Part shown: piece by piece, positions 29,387-39,841 of the stretch | How positions within the stretch are numbered: position 1 is the stretch's first letter | Layout of the letters: every line of letters starts with the position of its first letter | DNA from: an uncultured Myxococcales bacterium | GTDB lineage: Bacteria > Myxococcota_A > UBA9042 > DTJE01 | Direction of reading: 5' to 3' | Length of the DNA: 64,000 bases | NCBI GenBank assembly: GCA_937975765.1 | Contig: CALJUR010000108.1 | Span: 1,574-65,573, forward strand | Program-made: the position numbers and the translations under genes | The notes under the pieces: model-generated | What the model saw: only the letters and a program-made list of their open reading frames with translations | Told to the model about the DNA's origin: nothing | Database searches by the model: none

Positions 29387-32300
29387 TCAGTCGGGCAGCG
29401 CCACGGCGCACGCCATCGGGTGGTGGTCGAAGTAGACGATGTCGGTGACGGCGGGATGGCCGTCGGTGACGCCGGCGGACCAGCACGACCCGGTCAGCAC
29501 GTCCGACAGCACGTGGTCGATGTTGAAGAAGCCGGCGTAGGTGGGCATGGCCTCGGGGCCGACCTCGTCCAGGAAGTGGAAGGCCTTGCCCGGCCCCGCG
29601 AAGTCGTTCAGCCGCGCCGCGCTGGGGTCCGCCTCGGCCATCCGCCCGGGGTCGGTGTTGAAGTCGCCCATCACCAGGTTCGTCGCGCCGTTCGCACCCG
29701 GCTGGCCGTCCCCCAGGCCCAGGTCCACGAAGACCCTTTCGAACTGCCGCACCCGGCACTGCTGGTCGGACGCCTCGATGCCCGACGAGCCGTGCACGTT
29801 GACCAGCGTCAGCGGGCCGGCCCCGTCCCACCGGTCGATCACGCCGCGGCCGATCCGCGTGCCGCTGCCGCAGCCCTCGATCGTCCCGCCTTCCATCCCC
29901 TCCAGGCACAGGTCCGAGTCGCAGCCCCGGAAGCGCCCGAACCGCCGGTGCACGCCCGCGCACTTGTCCGTCTTGGCCCGGTGGCACATCACCTGGTAGT
30001 CCCCGCCCAGGATCGTCTGCGCCACGATCGGCATGCCCGCCGCCCAGCCGTCGCAGACGAAGCCCGCCTGCGCCTCGACCGGGATCCCCGCGCACTCGTT
30101 CGGGTCGAAGATCTCCTGGAACGCCACCACGTCCGGGTCGGTCGCGGCCAGCCACGCCCGCGCCGCGTCGATGGACGGCACCCAGGACAGCCCGTTGCCG
30201 TACCACTGGTCCGTCCACTCGGCCTGCTGCGGCCCGTACCCCCCGGGGGGCGCCGACGGATCGACCGTGCCCGACGTGCCGGTGTTGAACGTGACCGCCG
30301 TCATCGTGCGCGCCGGCGCCGCCGTCGCCAGCCGCGCCCCGGTCGCGAAGTCCAGGTACAGCCGGTGCCCGTCCGCCTGCACGTCGTAGCGCGCCTCGTC
30401 GAACCGGGCAGCCACGAACGGGTTGTCGAAGCGCCCGTCCCAGCGCAGCGGGATCTCCTGCCCGGCCACCACCAGCGGGTCGTGCCACCCGAACGTCACC
30501 GTGCCGCGCCCGGGCGCCTCCCAGGTCACGCGGTACCCGTCGTCGAACCCGTCCGCGTCCACGTCGGGCACCGGTTCCGCCGCAATGGCCGACGCCGCCA
30601 GCGCCGTCGTGAAGGCCTCGAACGACCCCCACTCCCCCGCGTCGCCCACCTGCACCACCCAGGCGTTCCGCGCGCCGTCCGCCACCAGGTCGAACGGCAG
30701 CCCCGCGTTCTCGAAGACCTCGGGCTGGCCCGTCCGCCAGTGCGTCGGCTGGAAGGACCACAGCCCCACGTAGGCCGCGCCCTTGCGCCCGAACGTCCAC
30801 TTCCCGTCCTGCACCACCTGGTCGAAGTGCGCGTGCGGGAAGTACGCGTGCGTCTCGTCCCGGTAGTCGAACTGCGACAGGCCCAGCGGCTTCGCCTCGA
30901 ACTGCGGCGCGTACAGGATCACCGCCAGGTCCCGGTGCTGGCCGATCCGCGGCAGCGACGAGTCGCCCGTCCAGTAGCCCGCCCCGTGCTCGTCGCTCGA
31001 CTGCCAGTCCCACGTCGCGGGCACCGGCTCGCCCTCCTTCAGGGGCAGCGCGCCCGGATGCTGCGTGAAGACCACCGCCGTTTCGTCCAGCGTCGCCTGC
31101 CACGCGTGCACCTGCATCGCGTTGCTGCCCTTCCGGTAGTCCTGCACGCTGGACAGCATCGCGTGGGCCGTCCGGTACGTCTTCGTGTGGACCTCCTGCA
31201 GCAGGCCCGAGTTGAAGATGCGCCAGAACAGCTGGTACAGCGGGAAGATGTCCTGCATCAGCACGTCCACCGGCTGGGTCAGGTCCAGCAGGCCCGCCAC
31301 GATCGAGATGGACTCGAACTGGCCCTCCCACAGCCCGTACCGGGTCGCCACGTCCAGCGTCAGCGGCAGCAGCGGCCACGACGTGAACGCCCCCATCGAC
31401 CACCACAGCCCCAGGTTCGCCTCGTCGTAGGCCAGCCCGTACGGCGGCGGCGGCACCGGGTCGTCGTACGCCGCGGGCGGCTCCTCGGGCACCGGCAGGT
31501 TCATGCGCTCGCGGTCCTCCATCGGCCCGTCGTGCCGCGCCACGGCCCGGATCGCGTACGGCATCGCGTACTTCTCGGACCGCGCGAACAGCACCGTCGC
31601 CATCGGCGCGGCGTCCTTCCACGGCAGCACCGTGTCGTCGAAGAAGAACTTCGTCGCGTTGAACGTGTCCTCCTTCACCGCGGCCGGCTTGTCCTTGATG
31701 TACGACCGCCCGTGCGTGACGCCGAAGTTGCCGCGATGCACGTGCAGCGCGACGTCCAGCCAGAACAGGTCCAGCACCATCGCGGCCTTCTGCCGGACCT
31801 CGTCGTCGTCGGCCCACTCGACCAGCGTGATCAGCGGGTTCATGTCCCAGTTGTAGTAGACGTCCGAATGCCACTCGGTGAAGCCCCATCGGGCCCGTTC
31901 CTCCAGCCAGCGCAGGATCTCGACGCGCGCCCGGTCCCGGTGCCACGCGCCGGTCTGCCCGGTGACCTCGAAGGTGCGATCCGGAAATCGCTGGCCCATC
32001 AGGAACTCGACCGTCCGGAAGATCAGCTGGTGGTTCTCGGACCAGTACCACATGCCGTCCACGACGGGCTGGCCGCCGGACTCGCGCGCCGGCGTCGGGT
32101 CGGAGAACCAGTACTTGAAGGCCAGCAGGGCGTCCTCCAGGCGCGTCCGCAGCGCGGCGGGCAGCGCCGGGTGGCCGTCGGTCGCGTACAGCAGGTTGAC
32201 CAGCCGGCACGCGTCGAAGTCGCTGGTGTCCCGCAGCCGGTACATCTTGTCCAGCACGCCGTCGAAGGCGTCCAGGGGCACGACGTCGGCCGGCACCTCC

Positions 32301-32665
32301 GGGAAGCCCATCCGGTTCGCGCAGGCGAGGTGCGCCAGCAGGTGCATCGGGTCGCGGCCGTTCAGCGGCACGCTGCAGGAATGCGCCAGGAAGTCCTGCT
32401 GCCGGGCGCGCTGCCACGCGGGGATCCCGTCGGGCATCGCGGGCAGGTCCGGCGGGCCGGCGTCGGCGTCGGTCGCCTCTTCCAGGGTCTCCCCCGGGGC
32501 GTCCTCCCATTCCGCGGCATCGAAGGCGTCCTGCACCGCCTCCTCCGCCGCGTCCGCCCCGTCCCCCGAGGGGTCGGTCGCGGCATCCCGCGCGTCCTGC
32601 GAGCCGCCCCCGCAGCCCGCCAGCACGACCACCATCCCCAGCCACATCCCGACGCCACGTCTCAT
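29387..32665 (-). CDS. large lipoprotein (1092 aa) with C-terminal endonuclease/exonuclease/phosphatase (EEP) domain; N-terminal ~800 aa unassigned
   Basis: Lipobox in MRRGVGMWLGMVVVLAGCGGG. C-terminal EEP motifs VVAFQEI, LVNVHGSSG, GDFNTD, NIDHVLSD. Confidence 0.7.
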   Translation of the reverse strand: MRRGVGMWLGMVVVLAGCGGGSQDARDAATDPSGDGADAAEEAVQDAFDAAEWEDAPGETLEEATDADAGPPDLPAMPDGIPAWQRARQQDFLAHSCSVPLNGRDPMHLLAHLACANRMGFPEVPADVVPLDAFDGVLDKMYRLRDTSDFDACRLVNLLYATDGHPALPAALRTRLEDALLAFKYWFSDPTPARESGGQPVVDGMWYWSENHQLIFRTVEFLMGQRFPDRTFEVTGQTGAWHRDRARVEILRWLEERARWGFTEWHSDVYYNWDMNPLITLVEWADDDEVRQKAAMVLDLFWLDVALHVHRGNFGVTHGRSYIKDKPAAVKEDTFNATKFFFDDTVLPWKDAAPMATVLFARSEKYAMPYAIRAVARHDGPMEDRERMNLPVPEEPPAAYDDPVPPPPYGLAYDEANLGLWWSMGAFTSWPLLPLTLDVATRYGLWEGQFESISIVAGLLDLTQPVDVLMQDIFPLYQLFWRIFNSGLLQEVHTKTYRTAHAMLSSVQDYRKGSNAMQVHAWQATLDETAVVFTQHPGALPLKEGEPVPATWDWQSSDEHGAGYWTGDSSLPRIGQHRDLAVILYAPQFEAKPLGLSQFDYRDETHAYFPHAHFDQVVQDGKWTFGRKGAAYVGLWSFQPTHWRTGQPEVFENAGLPFDLVADGARNAWVVQVGDAGEWGSFEAFTTALAASAIAAEPVPDVDADGFDDGYRVTWEAPGRGTVTFGWHDPLVVAGQEIPLRWDGRFDNPFVAARFDEARYDVQADGHRLYLDFATGARLATAAPARTMTAVTFNTGTSGTVDPSAPPGGYGPQQAEWTDQWYGNGLSWVPSIDAARAWLAATDPDVVAFQEIFDPNECAGIPVEAQAGFVCDGWAAGMPIVAQTILGGDYQVMCHRAKTDKCAGVHRRFGRFRGCDSDLCLEGMEGGTIEGCGSGTRIGRGVIDRWDGAGPLTLVNVHGSSGIEASDQQCRVRQFERVFVDLGLGDGQPGANGATNLVMGDFNTDPGRMAEADPSAARLNDFAGPGKAFHFLDEVGPEAMPTYAGFFNIDHVLSDVLTGSCWSAGVTDGHPAVTDIVYFDHHPMACAVALPD

Positions 32666-32810
32666 GCCCCACCTCGCCCTGGAACGGTACGAACCCCGGC
32701 CGGAAGCATACCATCGGCCGGCCCTGCCCCGACGGCCCCGTGAAGCCCCGGACCCGCCACCCCGGCCGCTCGTGTGCTATCTTCCTCCAGGAACCAGGAG
32801 GTTCCCCGGA

Positions 32811-34442
32811 TTGCGCAAGCCTCACCTGCGGTTCTGGTCCATCCCGCTGGTCGTCCTGGCCCTGGCCGGGCCGCTGGCGATCACGACGCATGCCGAGCAG
32901 GAGCGCCAGTACGAGTCGCTGCGGGCCCTGTTCGAGGCCCACGCCCGCTTCGTCGGGAACCTGGTCCGGGAGGCCTCCCAGGAGGCCGCCTGGTCCACCA
33001 GCCAGGCCTACGAGATGTCCGCCGACAACGCCGCCCGGTGCCTGGGGTTGCTGGGGATTCCCGGCGCCGTCGAGGATTGCGCCGCGATCCGGTCCCGGAT
33101 CCCCGACCTGGTCGTGTGGGCGGCCGTCGATGGCACCGGGGTTCGCGGTTGCACGGGTCCCCTGGCCGCCCCGGAACGGGTCGCGTTCGTGGAAGGCGTC
33201 CTGGCCGCGCCCGACCCGGGTTTCGTGGACGACGACCGCACCCGGGCGGCCGGGGTGTTCTGCGTGGCGGATCCGTCGCCCGGCGTCGCCACGGTCCTGT
33301 GCCTGGACCGCCGCCCGCTGGACGAGACCCGGCGGGAGGTGGGCCTGGGCCCCCTGCTGGCCGGCCTGAAGGACCCGGGCCTGGACTACGTCGTGGTGCA
33401 GGACGCCGGCGGGCTGCTGGCGGCCTCCCCGGATCCCGGGCAGGTCTCGACCTTCGCGGAGGACCCGCTGCTGGAACAGGTCCTTTCGGGCCCCGACGAC
33501 GGCGTGCAGGGACGGCTGCTGGTCCGGGACGGGCGCACCACCTACGAAATCGTCGGGCCGCTGGACCTGGCGGACGGCACGCGGGCGCTGGTTCGGGCGG
33601 CGCTGGACGCAGGCGAACTGGATCGCCTGCGGGACCGGATCGCGCGCCGCATGACGCTGATGGCGGGGGTACTGGGGACCGCGGTGCTGCTGGGCGCAGC
33701 GCTGGCGTGGGTGCTGTCGTTCGCGTCGCGACGGAGGCGGGAGTTCGAGGCTGCCCTGCAGCAGCGCGAGGAGGAGTCCCGCCACTGGCAGTCCCTGGGG
33801 CAGATGGCGGCGACGGTCGCCCACGAAGTCCGCAACCCCCTGAACACGATCGGGATGGCCCTGCAGCGGCTGGCCCGGGAGGTCCGGGTGACCCCGGAGG
33901 ACGAGGCCGGCTTCCGGGAGCTGCTGGAACTGTCCGGCGGCGCCGCCGACCGGGTCGAACGGGTGGTGGGGGACTTCCTGGAACTGGGCAAGCCGCTGGA
34001 TCTGGACCTGCGGCGGCACCCGGCCGGGCCGCTGGTGTCGGAGACCCTGGCCCCGCTGGCGATGCGCGCCCGGTCCGAGTCCCGGAACCTGGTGGTCGAG
34101 TGCGATTGCCCCGGCGAGGTTCGCGTGGACCGGCGGCGGTTCCAGCAGGTGGTCGCGAACCTGGTGGCAAACGCGCTGGATGCCGTCGGGCCGGGCGGGA
34201 CCGTCCGGGTGTTCGCGTCCTGCGGCGACGAGGGCTTCCGGATGACCGTCGAGGACGACGGGCCGGGGATGGACGCGGCCACGCTGGACCGGGTGCAGGC
34301 CCCGTTCGTCACCACCAAGGCGCACGGGACTGGCCTGGGGCTGCCGCTGGCGAAGCGGCTGGTGGAGGCGCACGGCGGGCGGCTGGTCCTGGAATCGGCG
34401 CCGGGACGCGGCACGCGGGCCACCGTGACGCTGCCCCGGTGA
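32811..34442 (+). CDS. sensor histidine kinase (two TM, HisKA + HATPase_c)
   Basis: TTG start 9 nt after AGGAGG. H-box ATVAHEVRNPL. N, G1 and G2 boxes (VANLVANALDA, EDDGPGM, GTGLGL). Confidence 0.75.
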   Translation: MRKPHLRFWSIPLVVLALAGPLAITTHAEQERQYESLRALFEAHARFVGNLVREASQEAAWSTSQAYEMSADNAARCLGLLGIPGAVEDCAAIRSRIPDLVVWAAVDGTGVRGCTGPLAAPERVAFVEGVLAAPDPGFVDDDRTRAAGVFCVADPSPGVATVLCLDRRPLDETRREVGLGPLLAGLKDPGLDYVVVQDAGGLLAASPDPGQVSTFAEDPLLEQVLSGPDDGVQGRLLVRDGRTTYEIVGPLDLADGTRALVRAALDAGELDRLRDRIARRMTLMAGVLGTAVLLGAALAWVLSFASRRRREFEAALQQREEESRHWQSLGQMAATVAHEVRNPLNTIGMALQRLAREVRVTPEDEAGFRELLELSGGAADRVERVVGDFLELGKPLDLDLRRHPAGPLVSETLAPLAMRARSESRNLVVECDCPGEVRVDRRRFQQVVANLVANALDAVGPGGTVRVFASCGDEGFRMTVEDDGPGMDAATLDRVQAPFVTTKAHGTGLGLPLAKRLVEAHGGRLVLESAPGRGTRATVTLPR

Positions 34443-34488
34443 GTCACGCAGCCCGGCCCCGACCCGGGCCGGCGGAAGGAAGGACGCG

Positions 34489-35856
34489 ATGGAACGCCCG
34501 GACAAGCCGACCCTGCTGCTGGTCGAGGACGACGACGCCCAGCGGCGCATGCTGTCGGGATTCCTGAAGAAGGCCGGCCATGCCGTGCTGGAGGCGGGCT
34601 CGGCGTCGCAGGCACGCGCGGCGGCACGGGACCAGCCGATCGACCTGCTGATCACTGACCTGCGGCTGGGCGGTCCCGACGGCATCGAACTGCTTCACGA
34701 CCTCCGCGGCGATCACCCCGACGTGCAGGCCATCGTGGTCACCGCCTTCGGGACCGTCGAGGACGCGGTGCGCGCCATGCGCGCCGGGGCGTACGACTTC
34801 GTCGCGAAGCCGGTCGACCTGGAGCGGCTGGAGACGCTGGTCGCCAAGGCGCTGGAGAAGGTGGCGCTGGCCCGCGAGAACCGGACGCTGCGCCGGGCGG
34901 TCGAGGTCGCGGACGCCTTCTCCGACTGGGTGGGAGACAGCCCGGCGATCCGGCAGGTCAAGGAACTGGCGATCAAGGTGGCGCCCAGCCGGGCGTCCGT
35001 GCTGATCCTGGGGGAGTCCGGGACCGGCAAGGAGGTCGTGGCCCGCGCGATCCACCGGATGTCGCCCCGGCGGGACGGCCCGTTCGTCACGCTGAACTGC
35101 GCGGTGTTCAGCGAGACGCTGGTCGAGTCGGAACTGTTCGGCCACGAGCGCGGGTCGTTCACCGGGGCCTCGTCGCAGAAGATCGGGCGGTTCGAACTGG
35201 CCAAGGGCGGCACGCTGTTCCTGGACGAGGTCGGCGACATCCCCCCCGCGGTCCAGGTGAAACTGCTGAACGTGCTGCAGACAGGGACCTTCGAGCGCGT
35301 CGGGGGCACGAAGCCGCTGACGACGGACGCCCGGGTCGTCGCGGCGACGCACCGGGACCTGGCGGCCCGCATCGCGACGGGCGAGTTCCGGGCCGACCTG
35401 TTCTACCGGCTGAACGTCGTGTCGCTGCACGTGCCGGCCCTGCGGGACCGCCCCGGGGACATCCCGTCCCTGGCGGCCCACTTCCTGCGCAAGCACGCCG
35501 ACCTGTCCGCGAAGGGGGTGGCCGGCGTGTCGCGCGAGGCGCTGGAGAACCTGGCCCGACACCCGTTCCCGGGCAACATCCGCGAACTGGAGAACCTGGT
35601 CGAGCGGGCCCTCGTGCTGGCGGACGGGCCGATCCTGGAGGCGAGAGACTTCCCGCTGGCCGCGGCCGGATCACCCGGGCCCGCGGGGGACGCGATGGCC
35701 GGGGACGGTCTGGAGGCGCAGGTGGCGCGCCTGGAACGCAACCTGATCGCGCGGGCGCTGGCCCGCCACGGCGGCAACCAGAGTGCCGCCGCCCGCGACC
35801 TGGGCCTGACCGAGCGCGCGGTCCGGTACAAGATGCAGAAGCTGGGGCTGTCGTGA
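34489..35856 (+). CDS. sigma-54-dependent response regulator, NtrC/AtoC family
   Basis: Receiver domain with LITDLRLGGPDG. AAA+ domain with GESGTGKE, the sigma-54 contact motif ESELFGHERGSFTGA, and arginine finger. C-terminal HTH QSAAARDLGLTERAVRYKMQKLG. Confidence 0.9.
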   Translation: MERPDKPTLLLVEDDDAQRRMLSGFLKKAGHAVLEAGSASQARAAARDQPIDLLITDLRLGGPDGIELLHDLRGDHPDVQAIVVTAFGTVEDAVRAMRAGAYDFVAKPVDLERLETLVAKALEKVALARENRTLRRAVEVADAFSDWVGDSPAIRQVKELAIKVAPSRASVLILGESGTGKEVVARAIHRMSPRRDGPFVTLNCAVFSETLVESELFGHERGSFTGASSQKIGRFELAKGGTLFLDEVGDIPPAVQVKLLNVLQTGTFERVGGTKPLTTDARVVAATHRDLAARIATGEFRADLFYRLNVVSLHVPALRDRPGDIPSLAAHFLRKHADLSAKGVAGVSREALENLARHPFPGNIRELENLVERALVLADGPILEARDFPLAAAGSPGPAGDAMAGDGLEAQVARLERNLIARALARHGGNQSAAARDLGLTERAVRYKMQKLGLS

Positions 35857-35990
35857 CGACCCGGCGGATCGACGCGCGGGTCGAACGGTTCGACGAAAAC
35901 GTCGAAGCCCGGACGCCGACCCGCAACGGTGGTTGGTATTCTTCTTGTGTTCACCGCGGGTTGCAACCAGGCACAAGCCGGCAACCCCCG

Positions 35991-36005
35991 TGGCACGCCC
36001 CTTGC
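35991..36005 (+). promoter_or_regulatory. sigma-54 promoter (-24/-12): TGGCAC-GCCCC-TTGC
   Basis: Exact match to the TGGCAC-N5-TTGC consensus, 135 bp downstream of the NtrC-type regulator and about 60 bp upstream of ATG 36066. Confidence 0.7.
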
Positions 36006-36065
36006 GAAACGTCCTTCTCGTCGGCCCGATGGCGGGCCGCGACTCTTTCCTCGGGAGGTTCGATC

Positions 36066-36458
36066 ATGAAGAGGACGCTGAAGAACCTGATGCTGGCCGC
36101 CGCCATCGCGGCGATTCCTGCCGCGGCGTTCGCGCAGGACACCGGCACGGAGAAGGGCAAGGGCGTTGCGGCCCAGGACCAGGCCGGGGACCAGGTCGGG
36201 GACCAGCTCCGGGGCCGGGACCGCGACCGGCTGAAGGACGGCACGGGCCCGGGCTTCGTCGATGCCGACGGCGACGGCATCTGCGACAACCAGGCGACCG
36301 GCGGCCAGAAGCTGGGCCAGGGCAAGGGCAAGGGCAAGGGGCTGGGGAAGGGCCAGGGGGCCGGCAAGGGCAAGGGCCTCCACGGCGCCGGCTTCGTCGA
36401 TGCCGACGGAGACGGGGTCTGCGACAACGCCCGGAACCGCAAGGGCCAGGCCCGCTAG
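36066..36458 (+). CDS. small secreted Gly/Lys-rich protein with two Excalibur-like Ca-binding motifs (FVDADGDGICDN, FVDADGDGVCDN)
   Basis: GGGAGG RBS. Signal peptide MKRTLKNLMLAAAIAAIPAAAFA. DxDxDGxxCD motifs. Confidence 0.6.
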   Translation: MKRTLKNLMLAAAIAAIPAAAFAQDTGTEKGKGVAAQDQAGDQVGDQLRGRDRDRLKDGTGPGFVDADGDGICDNQATGGQKLGQGKGKGKGLGKGQGAGKGKGLHGAGFVDADGDGVCDNARNRKGQAR

Positions 36459-36479
36459 TCCGAACGTCCCTGGCGACGG

Positions 36480-36504
36480 CCCGGGGGAGCGAGTCTCCCC
36501 CGGG
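36480..36504 (+). terminator. perfect 10-bp GC stem hairpin CCCGGGGGAG-cgagt-CTCCCCCGGG between the two paralogous small genes (attenuator/terminator-like, no U-tract)
   Basis: Perfect inverted repeat seen directly in sequence. Lies 22 nt after the stop at 36458 and 14 nt before ATG 36519. Confidence 0.3.
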
Positions 36505-36518
36505 CATCGGGAGCGATC

Positions 36519-36872
36519 ATGAACGCCCGGATGACATTGCTGGTCCTGGCAGCCTCGGTGCTGATGCCCAGGCTTTCGGCAGCGGCCGACGAACCCCAGG
36601 CCCCGCCCCCGGCGGCCCCCGCGCCCCCGCCTGCCGAGGCGGTTCCTCCGACGAACCTGCCCCCGCAGGCCCACGCACCGCAGGACGCGGGGGTGTTCGT
36701 CGATCGCGACGGCGACGGCATCCAGGACGGCCAGGAGCACCGCTTCCGGAAGCGCGGCAAGGGCGCCCTGGGCAAGGGCGCGGACGGGTCGGGCGCGGGC
36801 TCCGGTTCCGGCGCCATGCGCCGGCTGCGGCTGGGCGCGGGCGGCGGCTCGCGGCAGGGTGGCGGGCAATGA
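36519..36872 (+). CDS. small secreted Pro/Gly-rich protein, paralog of the upstream gene (FVDRDGDGIQDG motif)
   Basis: Signal peptide MNARMTLLVLAASVLMPRLSAAA. Single Ca-binding-like DxDGDG motif. Stop overlaps the next ATG (ATGA). Confidence 0.55.
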   Translation: MNARMTLLVLAASVLMPRLSAAADEPQAPPPAAPAPPPAEAVPPTNLPPQAHAPQDAGVFVDRDGDGIQDGQEHRFRKRGKGALGKGADGSGAGSGSGAMRRLRLGAGGGSRQGGGQ

Positions 36873-37993
36873 ATCCCCGGAAACAACTTGCATCCAGGCA
36901 CGGCCTGCGCCGGGCGCTCGCGGCGTGCATCCTGCTGGCGGGGCTCTGGGCGTTCCCGGCGCATGCGCAGGAACTCTCGGTCGCCGGCTCGGTCGGCACG
37001 ACCTGGACCGACAACGTGTTCGTGATGAGCGCGCCGGAATGGGACGCGTCGATCCTGCCCGCCCTGCGCGCCGGCGTGGACTTCGCCACCTTCTGGACGC
37101 TGCGGTACGAGGGCGCGGCCGAGATCTACACGAACCACACGGACCTGACCTCGCACGACCACGCGCTGCGGCTGCAGGTCAACCCGGCCTTCGGTCCCGA
37201 CGACGCGAACGAGTTCCTCGTCGGGCTGGAGGTCGAGACGCTGCGCAACCTGGACACCTACGCGGCGCTGAACTACGTGGGCGGGCAGGCGGATGCCGCG
37301 ATCCGCCTCGAACCGACGCCCTGGTTCGCCTGGCAGGCCGGCGCGGACCTGCGGTACCGCCGCTTCTACGACGACCCCCAGGCCGACACGCTGGACGTGC
37401 TGGCCTCGACCGAGGCCCGGTTCACGCTGCAGTCCCGGACCACGATCACGCCGCGCCTCGGATACGGCTTCCGGTACAACCCCGGCCTGAAGGGGCAGGG
37501 GGAGGGACGGCCCGACCGCGACGACCACCAACTGGACGTCGGCCTGCACTTCAGCCAGGGTCTCTGGGAGAACGCGGGCCTGCAGGCGGACTACTCGTAC
37601 CGGCACCTGTTCTCGTCCAGCCAGGCGCTGGCCCGCAAGCTGACCCAGACGCAGTTCGCCTTCCTGACCGCCGACTTCCTGGCCGGGGGGCACCGGGCGT
37701 ACCTGAAACTGAAGCAGGTGCTGCCGCGGGGCTGGTCGCTGCTGGCGGGCGTCGAGTTCCGGGCCCTGCGCTTCCCCGGCTGGCCGGCCACGGAAGCCGA
37801 CGGGACCGCCACCGGCGAGGACCGCGAAGACCGGCGGCTGATCCCCTCCGCGACCCTGGGGTACGACCACCGCTTCGGCAGCCTGGGGCTGCAGGCGAGA
37901 CTGTCCTACTCGTACCTGCGCCAGTGGTCGAACACCGCCGACTACGACACGCAGGCCCACCAGGTCGCGCTCTCGATCGCCCTGGAGTACTGA
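36869..37993 (+). CDS. outer-membrane beta-barrel protein
   Basis: Signal peptide MNPRKQLASRHGLRRALAACILLAGLWAFPAHA. Amphipathic strands. C-terminal ...LSIALEY. Confidence 0.55.
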   Translation: MNPRKQLASRHGLRRALAACILLAGLWAFPAHAQELSVAGSVGTTWTDNVFVMSAPEWDASILPALRAGVDFATFWTLRYEGAAEIYTNHTDLTSHDHALRLQVNPAFGPDDANEFLVGLEVETLRNLDTYAALNYVGGQADAAIRLEPTPWFAWQAGADLRYRRFYDDPQADTLDVLASTEARFTLQSRTTITPRLGYGFRYNPGLKGQGEGRPDRDDHQLDVGLHFSQGLWENAGLQADYSYRHLFSSSQALARKLTQTQFAFLTADFLAGGHRAYLKLKQVLPRGWSLLAGVEFRALRFPGWPATEADGTATGEDREDRRLIPSATLGYDHRFGSLGLQARLSYSYLRQWSNTADYDTQAHQVALSIALEY

Positions 37994-38092
37994 CCGGGAA
38001 CCCGCGCCCGGCTCCTTCCCGAAACCCGCCCCGCGTCTCCCCGGGAGCGCCCCCGGAGGTATCATGGAGTCGAGAAGTCCAGGAGGTGCCCC

Positions 38093-38293
38093 ATGGAAAC
38101 GGCCATCGCGTCGCAGCCCGCCCTCACCCGGGACGAGTGGACGCAGATCGCCCTCCTGCTGAAGGAGGAACTGGACGGCCTGCAGACCGAGATCCACCAC
38201 ACCGATTCGCAGGCCTACCGGGACGACCTGCAGGCGCGCCGCCAGACGCTGGCCGGCACGCTGCAGAAGGTGGAGGCGGCGCTGAAGGGCTGA
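38093..38293 (+). CDS. small helical protein (66 aa), unknown function
   Basis: CAGGAGG RBS 7 nt upstream. GC3-rich frame. Confidence 0.4.
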   Translation: METAIASQPALTRDEWTQIALLLKEELDGLQTEIHHTDSQAYRDDLQARRQTLAGTLQKVEAALKG

Positions 38294-38467
38294 TGCCCGG
38301 GCACGCCGGCCGGGAGGCACCCCCGCCCCGGGCACGGGTTTCCCCGGCCCCCCGTCGCACGCCCCGGGCCCTGGATCCGCGACTTCCCCCCGCCCACCCG
38401 CGGGATTCCACGCCCCCGCGCCTTCGTGGTACGGTACCGCGTTCCCGTTCCCTCACCGGAGGCAGGC

Positions 38468-39841
38468 ATGGCGTCGCAGCGCGGCCACTGGGGCTCCCGT
38501 CTGGGCTTCATCCTCGCGGCGGCGGGTTCCGCGGTCGGCCTGGGCAACCTGTGGAAGTTCCCCTACCTGGCCTGGGAGAACGGCGGCGGGGCCTTCCTGC
38601 TGGTCTACCTGGTCGCGGTGGTGCTGCTGGGCCTGCCCATCATGATGGCCGAGATCCTGGTCGGGCGCCGGGCCCAGGCCAGCGCGGTGCCCGCCTTCAC
38701 GGCGCTGGGCGGGCGCGGCTGGTCGGTGGTCGGCTGGCTGGGCGTCCTGTCGGGCGCCGTGATCCTGTCGTACTACACCGTCATCGCCGGCTGGTCGCTG
38801 CGCTCGTTCTTCCAGTGCGTCCAGTGGTCCCTGGGCAGCTACCCGCCCGATGCCGGCGCGCGCTTCGGCGCCTTCCTGGCCGACGGGACCCAGCAGGTGC
38901 TGCTGACCACCGGCTTCACGCTCCTGACCGCCTTCATCGTCTACCGCGGCATCGGGTCCGGCATCGAGCGGGCCAGCAAGGTCATGATGCCCGTCCTGCT
39001 GTCCATCCTCCTCTACCTGGTCGTCACGACCCTGACCCTGCCCGGCCGCACCGCCGGCCTGTCGCACCTGTGGCTGCCCCGCCTCGACGCCCTGCCTCCG
39101 CAGGGGGCGCTGCTGGCCGTCGGGCAGGCCTTCTTCAGCCTGTCCCTGGGCCTGGGAGCCATGATCGCCTACGGTTCCTACCTGTCCCGCAAGGAGTCCC
39201 TGGCCGGATCGGCCGCGTGGGTGGTCGTCTGCGACACGATGGTCGCGCTGCTGGCCGGGACGGCCATGTTCATCATCATCCACTCCATCCCCGGCCTGGA
39301 CCAGCGGGTCTCCGGCTCGACCGTCGGGATGCTGTTCATCACCCTGCCGGAGCTGTTCTACACGCAGATGCCGGGCGGGGTCGTGCTGGCGCCGCTGTTC
39401 TTCGTCCTGGTCGCCTTCGCGGCGCTGACCTCGACCATCAGCCTGGGCGAGGTGGTCGCCTCGCTGCTGATCGACCGGAAGGGCTGGTCCCGGCCCCGGG
39501 CGACGCTGGCCAGCACCGTCGTCGTGTATGCCGGTTCGCTGCTGTGCGCCCTGTCGCTGGGGGCCCAGCCGGCGCTGTCCACCTTCGAGGTCTTCGCCGG
39601 CAAGGCGGGGCTCCTGTCCACCCTGGACCACCTGGCCGCCAACTGGCTGCTCCCGCTGGGCGGCCTGGGCACCACGATCTTCGTGGGCTGGCGGCTGGCC
39701 CGCAAGGACCTGCTGGAGGAACTGGGTCTGCGGCGCCCGACCTGGCTGTTCCACGCCTGGGTCTGGCTGCTGCGGGTGGTGGCCCCGCTGGCCATCGTGG
39801 CGCTGCTGGCGATGGTCGTCGCCGGGAAGGACTTGAGCTGA
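38468..39841 (+). CDS. sodium-dependent transporter, neurotransmitter:sodium symporter (NSS/SNF) family
   Basis: NSS signature GLGNLWKFPYLAWENGGGAFLLVYL. Twelve TM segments. GGAGG RBS. Confidence 0.85.
   Translation: MASQRGHWGSRLGFILAAAGSAVGLGNLWKFPYLAWENGGGAFLLVYLVAVVLLGLPIMMAEILVGRRAQASAVPAFTALGGRGWSVVGWLGVLSGAVILSYYTVIAGWSLRSFFQCVQWSLGSYPPDAGARFGAFLADGTQQVLLTTGFTLLTAFIVYRGIGSGIERASKVMMPVLLSILLYLVVTTLTLPGRTAGLSHLWLPRLDALPPQGALLAVGQAFFSLSLGLGAMIAYGSYLSRKESLAGSAAWVVVCDTMVALLAGTAMFIIIHSIPGLDQRVSGSTVGMLFITLPELFYTQMPGGVVLAPLFFVLVAFAALTSTISLGEVVASLLIDRKGWSRPRATLASTVVVYAGSLLCALSLGAQPALSTFEVFAGKAGLLSTLDHLAANWLLPLGGLGTTIFVGWRLARKDLLEELGLRRPTWLFHAWVWLLRVVAPLAIVALLAMVVAGKDLS

Follow-up and report, generated by a model that had tools for sequence, protein, structure and literature searches.

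Within the 64-kb stretch of contig CALJUR010000108.1 of an uncultured Myxococcales bacterium that was analysed here (referred to as the window; 72% GC), five genes on the plus strand form a putative regulatory module, with a sigma-54 promoter between the second and the third of them. The first gene (32811-34442) encodes a sensor histidine kinase of 543 amino acids with HisKA and HATPase_c domains according to Pfam; it starts with TTG and has the ribosome-binding site AGGAGG located 8 nt upstream of this codon. Next to it lies the gene of an NtrC-type sigma-54 enhancer-binding response regulator, in the following called the activator (34489-35856, stop codon at 35854-35856; 455 amino acids), which is composed of a REC domain, an AAA+ domain and a Fis-type helix-turn-helix (HTH). 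The promoter TGGCACGCCCCTTGC (35991-36005, plus strand) is followed by sp1 (36066-36458) and sp2 (36519-36872), which encode small secreted proteins of 130 and 117 amino acids, respectively, and by a gene for an outer-membrane beta-barrel of 374 amino acids (36869-37993). All three products carry signal peptides, in case of sp1 a Sec signal peptide with AAFA in front of the cleavage site and QD behind it, and in case of the barrel with AHA and QE at these positions. An earlier note on this DNA had proposed a unit of sensor kinase, NtrC-type activator, promoter and three genes, and all of its parts were found where that note had placed them.

The promoter TGGCACGCCCCTTGC is the sole exact match to TGGCAC-N5-TTGC on either strand of the window. 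By itself this match count is weak evidence, since 17 of 100 shuffled windows contained at least one exact -24/-12 element as well (mean 0.19); the case for the promoter rests on position, orientation and conservation instead. The element is located 134 nt downstream of the activator stop codon and 60 nt upstream of the ATG at 36066, reads along the coding strand, and agrees with the consensus TGGCAC-N5-TTGCW, with the GG (35992-35993) and GC (36004-36005) doublets spaced by 10 nt. Transcription is predicted to start near 36016-36017. In an alignment of eight module copies, namely that of the window and those of seven syntenic relatives, TGGCA-G and the GC of the -24/-12 element are invariant.

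The association between promoter and activator was followed across 76 loci encoding members of the small-protein family, in which an element was counted if at least 8 of the 9 positions of TGGCAC-N5-TTG were matched within 200 nt upstream. Each of the 18 loci linked to an activator has such an element in front of its first small-protein gene, compared to 4 of 58 unlinked ones, and shuffled upstream regions yielded the element in 0.2 of 26. The four unlinked loci with an element are situated on Calditrichota or KSB1 contigs, and for at least two of them, one on a contig of 3.8 kb and the other with a kinase gene at its end, the activator may lie outside the DNA that was retrieved. A search of positions 32500-38500 of the window for sigma-70-like promoters gave none.

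As a separate observation, the -12 element reads TTGA or TTGT, not TTGC, in Bacteroidota, Ignavibacteria, Kapaibacteria, Calditrichota, KSB1 and one Vicinamibacterales locus, e.g., TGGCACGACAATTGA. Such sites were seen at L062:7946, L016:7913, L028:7907, L080:6804, L058:827 and 1768, L054:5148, L059:7912, and L030:7912 (locus:position). This systematic departure from the invariant GC may represent a lineage-specific variant of the sigma-54 promoter.

For phylogenetic footprinting, the spacer between the regulator gene and sp1 was aligned from the eight module versions. The spacers diverge strongly except for four conserved blocks, which are given by two TCGAC-N6-GTCGA palindromes, the -24/-12 element, a leader sequence CGGCCCnAnGGnGGGC and the Shine-Dalgarno sequence. 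Exact copies of TCGAC-N6-GTCGA occur twice in the window, both in this spacer (palindrome 1, TCGACGCGCGGGTCGA, 35869-35884; palindrome 2, TCGACGAAAACGTCGA, 35890-35905), compared to an expected number of 0.18, and none of 100 shuffled windows reached two. Measured from the TGG of the -24 element, their centres are situated 114 and 93 nt upstream, respectively, and hence 21 bp or two helical turns apart, a geometry relative to the -24 element that is expected for an NtrC-type enhancer. The pair is conserved in the seven syntenic relatives, and in the closest named relative, the uncultured Myxococcales metagenome-assembled genome (MAG) L004, the site aligned to palindrome 2 is identical over the whole 17-nt block TCGACGAAAACGTCGAA.

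Beyond these relatives, TCGAC-N6-GTCGA is situated 69-130 nt upstream of the promoter in the window and in 12 of 18 related promoters, at a background of 0.06 per 260 nt, and often as paired sites approximately 21 bp apart. Carriers include Myxococcales, Vicinamibacterales, Bacteroidota, Ignavibacteriales, Calditrichaceae, KSB1, and Geobacteraceae. The activators of palindrome-bearing loci share the HTH end ER-x-[LV]R-[YS]-[KR], mostly ERxLRYK, and the window activator with its HTH sequence TERAVRYKMQK belongs to them, whereas SRRNxIYK takes this place in the HTH of the Hydrogenedentes activators, which come from loci without the palindrome. The two palindromes are likely the binding site of the activator. 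Because the promoter tracks the activator, the palindromes recur and the HTH sequence follows the presence of the palindrome, the link between the kinase/activator pair and the sp1 operon is about as strong as sequence comparison allows.

An AT-rich island (35926-35951; 42% GC) separates the palindromes from the promoter, and the relatives are AT-rich at the same position as well; a role in DNA bending or as a region bound by integration host factor is possible. The leader block CGGCCCGATGGCGGGCCG (36022-36039, plus strand) is conserved in sequence and may fold into a stem-loop of 6 bp close to the 5' terminus of the RNA. RNAalifold proposed five pairs in this block, none of which with a compensatory change, so that the structure is unproven, and no family of Rfam matched except for a spurious hepatitis B virus element far below threshold.

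The complete five-gene order with unrelated flanks was observed on the contigs L004, L084/L085, L086, L087, L088, L089, and L090 and on the P0125 contigs, in all cases together with a -24/-12 element. Approximately 20 close homologues of the barrel were detected, and on every readable contig the order is kinase, regulator, sp1, sp2 and barrel. The exact sp1 protein is also encoded on a metagenomic contig which bears the same kinase and regulator. Between the window and L004, identity amounts to 66% for the kinase, 78% for the regulator, 57% for sp1, 44% for sp2, and 71% for the barrel. With such a relative, the placement of the window in the Myxococcota is plausible. Genes flanking the module vary by contig and comprise OsmC and GGDEF genes, hydrogenase maturation genes, or DsbA-like genes. 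We consider it likely that the five genes represent a conserved and portable envelope-signalling unit, in which the kinase/activator pair would switch on sp1, sp2 and the barrel gene; both the synteny and the conserved -24/-12 element support the self-contained unit driven from a sigma-54 promoter that had been suggested beforehand.

In the window, an open reading frame of 1092 amino acids on the minus strand (29387-32665) lies directly 5' of the module, outside the conserved unit. Its sole match is a faint one to Exo_endo_phos, which was seen on the matching contig.

Two elements connect the output genes with each other. A GC-rich stem-loop (GCCCGGGGGAG-cgagt-CTCCCCCGGGC; 36479-36505, plus strand) without U-tract is situated between sp1 and sp2, 21 nt downstream of the sp1 stop codon and 3 nt upstream of the sp2 Shine-Dalgarno sequence GGGAG (36509-36513). 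The perfect hairpin described in the earlier note is present, except that its stem comprises 11 instead of 10 bp. It is the only perfect stem of at least 10 bp with a loop of 3-8 nt in the window, and a segment of 71 nt folds with a minimum free energy of -34.5 kcal/mol. The evidence for the hairpin lies in its conservation rather than in its rarity: it is kept in seven of eight relatives with varying loops, and for 4 of its 10 predicted pairs compensatory changes were seen in one or more sequences. That the hairpin sets the ratio of sp1 to sp2 is plausible. The second element is the overlap of the sp2 stop and the barrel start in ATGA (36869-36872), noticed before and found in 6 of the 8 module versions with compared coordinates, namely in the window and in five relatives.

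Neighbourhoods of the small-protein family were analysed with one genome per species, and the best 80 of 207 confirmed loci were considered. Clustering of the neighbour genes resulted in two mutually exclusive contexts. Context A is found in bacteria with an outer membrane, namely Myxococcales, Vicinamibacterales, Bacteroidota (including Ignavibacteria and Kapaibacteria), Calditrichota, Geobacteraceae, Hydrogenedentes and probably KSB1. In at least 17 loci of this context a kinase and a sigma-54 activator are encoded within 8 kb, the activators being 40-78% identical to that of the window over the full length, and in 13 loci a barrel of approximately 385 amino acids without Pfam match is encoded at most 600 nt downstream of the small-protein gene. 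Context B is found in the single-membrane Firmicutes and Eggerthellaceae, where the small-protein gene is followed by the gene for an extracytoplasmic function (ECF)-type sigma-70 factor (median gap of 16 nt) and then by that for an RsgI_M-type anti-sigma factor (27-31 loci). Loci of Chloroflexota and Methanosarcinales have no consistent partner. Other neighbours are sporadic and include DUF2202 ferritin-like proteins (5 loci), ArsR (4 loci), ABC ATPases, VTT domains, and housekeeping genes.

Several observations at these loci stand apart from the module itself. The C-termini of approximately 27 RsgI_M anti-sigma factors (L005-L082; e.g., L046:2441-3532 and L049:8977-10017) consist of Gly-X repeat tails. 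These extracellular tails (GQGQG, GNGNG, GHGHG) resemble the linkers of the small proteins, are often rich in His (GHGQGHGSGHG…HE), and are preceded by a conserved motif GLSxGKYRAxLEL…MTMREIRD. In case of L024, L034, L043, L045, and L083, the small-protein family occurs in MAGs of Methanoperedens/Methanosarcinales, with a VTT-domain membrane protein and ArsR-type regulators among the neighbours; to our knowledge, archaea possess neither sigma-54 nor ECF sigma factors nor an outer membrane. A gene for a secreted DUF2202 protein (ferritin/rubrerythrin-like) adjoins the small-protein gene at L058:857-1573, L080:6815-7546, L026:6472-7209, L041:9549-10283, and L079:8523-9239. The copies in L058 and L080 each possess a separate TGGCAC-N5-TTGA element as well as a separate intrinsic terminator, and the gene may belong to the same regulon as the small protein, as appears to be the case in Calditrichota. 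DUF2202 turns up in a paper on ferrosomes. No publication on the motif in bacteria, on the family PF27309, which is discussed below, on the operator or on the module was found, a paper on the Desulfovibrio sigma-54 regulome gives no TCGAC operator, and a survey of sigma-54 regulons from 2025 does not contain this module.

The kinase consists of a first transmembrane segment, a probably double-Cache-like periplasmic sensor of approximately 250 amino acids, a second transmembrane segment, and the HisKA (E 1.8e-11) and HATPase_c (E 1.5e-26) domains. Its best NCBIfam match is ZraS, with 170 bits compared to a cutoff of 479. An AlphaFold2 model of residues 1-330 (mean predicted local distance difference test, pLDDT, of 87) shows two alpha/beta modules behind a long helix, a secondary-structure order that fits dCache. 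The best Foldseek matches of the sensor are the dCache ligand-binding domains 5wbf, 3lif, and 5ltv, with template-modelling (TM) scores of just 0.34-0.48, and in Pfam only sCache_3_2 was hit, at E 0.074. As an observation in its own right, four Cys residues of the periplasmic sensor (window 32811-33700) do not vary in a set of 13 homologues; two disulfides are conceivable for them, as is a site that responds to redox state or metals.

In case of the activator, Pfam assigns Sigma54_activat (E 3.1e-69), Response_reg (E 1.3e-25), and HTH_8 (E 3.1e-12), and the AAA+ motifs GESGTGKE and GSFTGA, on which its earlier placement in the NtrC family was based, are present. The protein stays below all NCBIfam equivalog cutoffs (ZraR 405 of 760, AtoC 449 of 714, and NtrC 412 of 559 bits).

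The predicted sequences of sp1 and sp2 are largely of low complexity, rich in Gly, and presumably exported by Sec. Two FVDADGDG[IV]CDN loops, FVDADGDGICDN and FVDADGDGVCDN, are present in sp1 and joined by a GKGKG linker; the mature protein contains 27% Gly and has an isoelectric point of 8.6. The second protein, sp2, carries FVDRDGDGIQDG and is arranged as signal peptide, Pro/Ala-rich spacer, a single loop DRDGDGIQDGQE, and a basic tail HRFRKR…MRRLR. Every EF-hand ligand position of this loop is filled, including Glu at position 12. In the alignment of sp2 orthologues, F(V)DRDGDGI(Q)DG(Q)E(H)RFR, the residues D-R-D-G-D-G-I, D9, G10, E12, and R-F-R are invariant, while positions 8 and 11 vary. 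These orthologues constitute a distinct subfamily that is related to the sp1 family (hhalign 96.6%, E 6.6e-10), in agreement with the initial description of sp2 as a paralogue of sp1.

In the local copies of Pfam and NCBIfam, which lack the recent Pfam entry PF27309, neither sp1 nor sp2 matched a model above threshold, including the CpxP, Spy, and ZraP families in Pfam. The earlier note had called them Excalibur-like on the basis of a DxDxDGxxCD signature, which is a misreading of the motif: the loops read D-x-D-x-D-G-x-C-D with Cys at loop position 8, whereas Excalibur reads DxDxDGxxCE. Excalibur (PF05901) gave no match to sp1 or sp2 at E <= 1, and a single relative reached E 0.098, below the cutoff. 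TSP3_bac (PF18884) was rejected for sp2 (E 0.052; 13.8 bits compared to a cutoff of 25), as were the EF-hand models PF00036 and PF13202, which gave sub-threshold matches to relatives only (E 0.13-0.7). A sequence search of the PDB with the small protein returned only non-significant matches to calmodulin loops, FlgE, and a phage hydrolase, and no helices flanking the loops were detected.

Homologues of sp1 amount to 850 at E <= 1e-3. About a third of the top 120 carry a precomputed assignment to PF27309, and sp1 aligns to these with E-values of 1e-10 to 2e-16. Members of the family possess a signal peptide, in some cases replaced by a lipobox, and 2-6 copies of [FY]-V-D-A-D-G-D-G-[VI]-C-D-N, separated by Gly-X linkers with X being K, R, Q or N. 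Due to the ligand pattern D1/D3/D5/G6/D9 of the loops, as known from EF-hand-type DxDxDG sites, and the additional Glu12 in sp2, binding of Ca or other divalent cations by sp1 and sp2 can reasonably be inferred. Pairing of the loop Cys residues in disulfides was considered and dropped, since odd (63) and even (57) Cys counts are distributed at random in the family, which argues against simple disulfide pairing. Three sp1 orthologues (L084:6016-6531, L087:4365-5108, and L089:4493-5281) have lost the second loop, and the Cys of the remaining loop is changed to His or Asn.

The AlphaFold2 model of the barrel comprises 16 strands (pLDDT 88, predicted TM score 0.79), and the protein ends in the aromatic C-terminus LEY, as outer-membrane barrels do. 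Foldseek returned 353 barrel matches in the PDB at E <= 1e-3, which are generic barrels of 14-18 strands (TM scores of 0.38-0.53, 8-13% identity) including OccK/OprD, OmpG, CymA, AlgE, PelB, PgaA, and CdiB. An assignment to the named porin or exporter families (OprD/Occ, OmpG, AlgE, PgaA, TpsB) was rejected, as the similarity is spread over many unrelated barrels. In Pfam, OMP_b-brl reached 20.8 bits compared to a cutoff of 28.7, and six members of the barrel family gave nothing above threshold in Pfam and NCBIfam. Searched with a profile against 1.84 billion representative proteins, this family comprises 259 representative clusters, and the barrels of the window and of other phyla belong together over the full length (hhalign 99.7%, E 1.4e-26). 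Judged by the model, the class of the barrel is clear and the family is new. A set of barrel relatives (P0165, P0168, P0171, P0183, and P0202) has an additional N-terminal part of approximately 150-220 amino acids, …APCxDxTGxxLGRR…; fusion of a small protein to the barrel was rejected, given that this domain is unrelated to the small proteins.

According to the mechanism proposed here, the membrane kinase with its periplasmic double-Cache-type sensor would phosphorylate the activator, as is known for these families. The activator would bind both TCGAC-N6-GTCGA palindromes, as their conservation suggests, and would contact the sigma-54 polymerase at TGGCACG-N4-TTGC by the looping typical of the NtrC class, probably supported by the AT-rich bend. 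A single transcript would then comprise sp1, the GC-rich stem-loop, sp2, and the barrel gene, and the stem-loop would most likely reduce the distal genes compared to sp1, either by partial termination or by a stabilised processed 3' end. The conserved ATGA overlap suggests that translation of the barrel gene is coupled to that of sp2 and that the two products may also be physical partners, with the barrel predicted to form a 16-strand outer-membrane channel. As for the function, we tentatively favour, with somewhat less than even confidence, an inducible divalent-cation-binding response of the envelope that resembles ZraPSR, in which abundant sp1 would bind or buffer cations, either in the periplasm or on the cell surface, and the outer-membrane component would be supplied by the pair of sp2 and barrel.

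A number of observations weigh against this mechanism or the function assigned to it. No rpoN gene is present in the 64-kb window, and nothing consistent about the signal can be read from the flanking genes. Due to the fact that dCache domains usually bind small organic ligands and not metals, the signal of the kinase need not be a metal, and the dCache-like fold predicted for its sensor counts against a cation response. Position 12 of the sp1-type loops is usually G, A or Q, which makes them non-canonical EF-hands, no Ca-binding model of Pfam matched sp1, sp2 or their relatives at threshold, and the near-invariance of the Cys at loop position 8 (403 of 424 motifs) has no explanation. The hairpin alone is not rare, as Markov-1 simulations yield approximately two such stems per 64 kb, and L086, with a spacer of 8 nt, lacks it while the gene order is unchanged.

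Possible, yet somewhat doubtful, is a function in secretion, with the barrel acting as a dedicated translocon for unfolded Gly-rich small proteins, which would subsequently serve at the surface or outside the cell in matrix formation, adhesion, or the capture of minerals or cations. A parallel is given by CsgG, which exports curli subunits. In good agreement with this idea, the barrel accompanies the small-protein gene in outer-membrane phyla only and is lacking in single-membrane bacteria and archaea; the barrel gene overlaps sp2 in the window and follows within 600 nt in 13 other loci; and low-complexity, Gly-rich proteins could plausibly thread through a pore. Barrels of polymer export are also among the best folds (AlgE with a TM score of 0.53, PelB, PgaA, and the TpsB barrel of CdiB), but the Foldseek matches are generic, and OprD/Occ, OmpG, and CymA score equally. 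Furthermore, neither an energy source nor a periplasmic partner is evident, and the longer barrel relatives bear the unrelated N-terminal domain in place of a fused small protein.

Rather unlikely in our view, the small proteins could bind the periplasmic sensor of the kinase or, in single-membrane bacteria, the anti-sigma factor, and thereby tune signalling instead of being bulk effectors. CpxP, which modulates CpxA, and ZraP, which modulates ZraS, act in this manner. The nearly constant location of the family beside a dedicated transmembrane signalling pair (kinase/activator in at least 18 loci of outer-membrane phyla, ECF/RsgI_M in 27-31 loci of single-membrane bacteria) speaks for such a co-sensor, as does the likeness between the Gly-X tails of the anti-sigma factors and the small-protein linkers. 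However, a target of a signalling system need not be a modulator of it, the conserved barrel is left unexplained, and so is the position of sp1 in front of the hairpin, which suggests production in excess. Secretion and co-sensing are compatible with each other and with the cation-binding envelope response. It is tempting to speculate, although we regard this as unlikely, that the small-protein family forms the centre of a so far unrecognised extracytoplasmic system for cation or metal stress, widespread in bacteria and extending to archaea. The disordered loop protein would act both as effector and as ligand or co-sensor of its own signalling device and, in the presence of an outer membrane, would pass through a dedicated 16-strand barrel of a new family. 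Bacteria with an outer membrane would use a dCache kinase and a sigma-54 activator with the phylum-spanning operator TCGAC-N6-GTCGA, whereas single-membrane bacteria would rely on an ECF sigma factor and an RsgI-type anti-sigma factor, with the Gly-X tail of the latter imitating the small protein.

The remaining alternatives concern the transcription of the module. A complete termination at the hairpin, with sp1 being monocistronic and sp2 and the barrel gene being transcribed separately, would fit the stable and conserved 11-bp stem so close to the sp1 stop codon. It is nevertheless improbable: a U-tract is lacking, only 13 nt lie between the stem and the sp2 start, where no promoter-like element fits, a second -24/-12 element is missing upstream of sp2, where the best score was 6 of 9, and the gene order persists in L086 without the hairpin.

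Very improbable is a role of a GTTGC-N16-GCAAC dyad (CGCGGGTTGC-N16-GCAACCCCCG, 35955-35990), which had been noticed earlier upstream of the -24 element, as binding site of the regulator. The dyad does exist in the window sequence and even extends to arms of 10 nt with 90% complementarity (35955-35964 and 35981-35990), but its regulatory role is not supported: it is absent from all seven aligned syntenic relatives, in which the TCGAC palindromes are conserved instead. It also abuts the -24 element, whereas sites of bacterial enhancer-binding proteins are usually situated approximately 80-150 bp upstream. That the promoter match arose by chance in GC-rich DNA, with the genes being expressed by read-through of the kinase-activator operon or through a sigma-70 promoter that escaped recognition, is hardly credible in spite of the matches in shuffled windows and the lack of a detectable terminator after the activator gene, given the correct position, strand and spacing of the element, its invariance in relatives whose neighbouring intergenic sequence has diverged, and its co-occurrence with the activator over the 76 loci.

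Sigma-54 two-component units are common, and their targets, operators, and signals are often not known. The comparison presented here provides an explicit putative operator (two TCGAC-N6-GTCGA sites), a promoter, and a three-gene output, and all of these are found again in six or more named phyla. The output is given by two uncharacterised families, the small protein with at least 850 members and the Pfam-less barrel with approximately 259 clusters. In gut Firmicutes and Eggerthellaceae the small protein is wired to an ECF sigma/anti-sigma pair, which argues for a general extracytoplasmic role, and cultured carriers of this version include Slackia equolifaciens, Butyricicoccus pullicaecorum, and Clostridium methylpentosum.

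Among the known systems, ZraPSR is the closest analogue in functional terms, while every Zra equivalog test fails. Similar to ZraS-ZraR-ZraP of E. coli and Salmonella, a sigma-54 two-component pair is located beside a sigma-54-driven gene for a small periplasmic signal-peptide protein with a Gly-rich segment, and ZraS is the top NCBIfam match of the kinase, with ZraR among the top three of the activator. ZraP is both effector and feedback regulator. Unlike in ZraPSR, the Zra models stay far below their cutoffs, sp1 and sp2 match none of the CpxP, Spy, and ZraP families, and a predicted dCache-like sensor, a second paralogue, an outer-membrane barrel, and the TCGAC-N6-GTCGA operator are added here. 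With regulators of the NtrC/AtoC class the activator shares the REC-AAA+-HTH_8 order, a GAFTGA-type loop (here GSFTGA), two dyad sites approximately 100 bp upstream, and a -24/-12 promoter, but it corresponds to no named NCBIfam equivalog and its target genes belong to uncharacterised families.

The loops of sp1 and sp2 resemble the DxDxDG loops of EF-hand, thrombospondin type 3, dockerin, and Excalibur in D1/3/5/9 and G6, in case of sp2 also in Glu12. They differ from EF-hand, thrombospondin type 3 and Excalibur in the lack of a threshold-passing Ca model of Pfam and in the Cys at position 8, which in Excalibur is at position 9 and followed by Glu, and from folded Ca domains in general by the Gly-X low-complexity linkers that join the repeats. 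The Dx[DN]xDG motif occurs in multiple structural contexts (reviewed in PMC3123361). The ECF/RsgI-type modules of Firmicutes and Eggerthellaceae adjoin the same small-protein family and can be regarded as a functional counterpart of the kinase/activator pair, but they contain neither sigma-54 nor a barrel and do not occur in the window. Compared to all of these, the module represents no new principle but a standard NtrC-class sigma-54 architecture that controls an undescribed and widely distributed cargo, and since the regulatory architecture is conventional, its value lies in the defined, unexplored system which it opens up.

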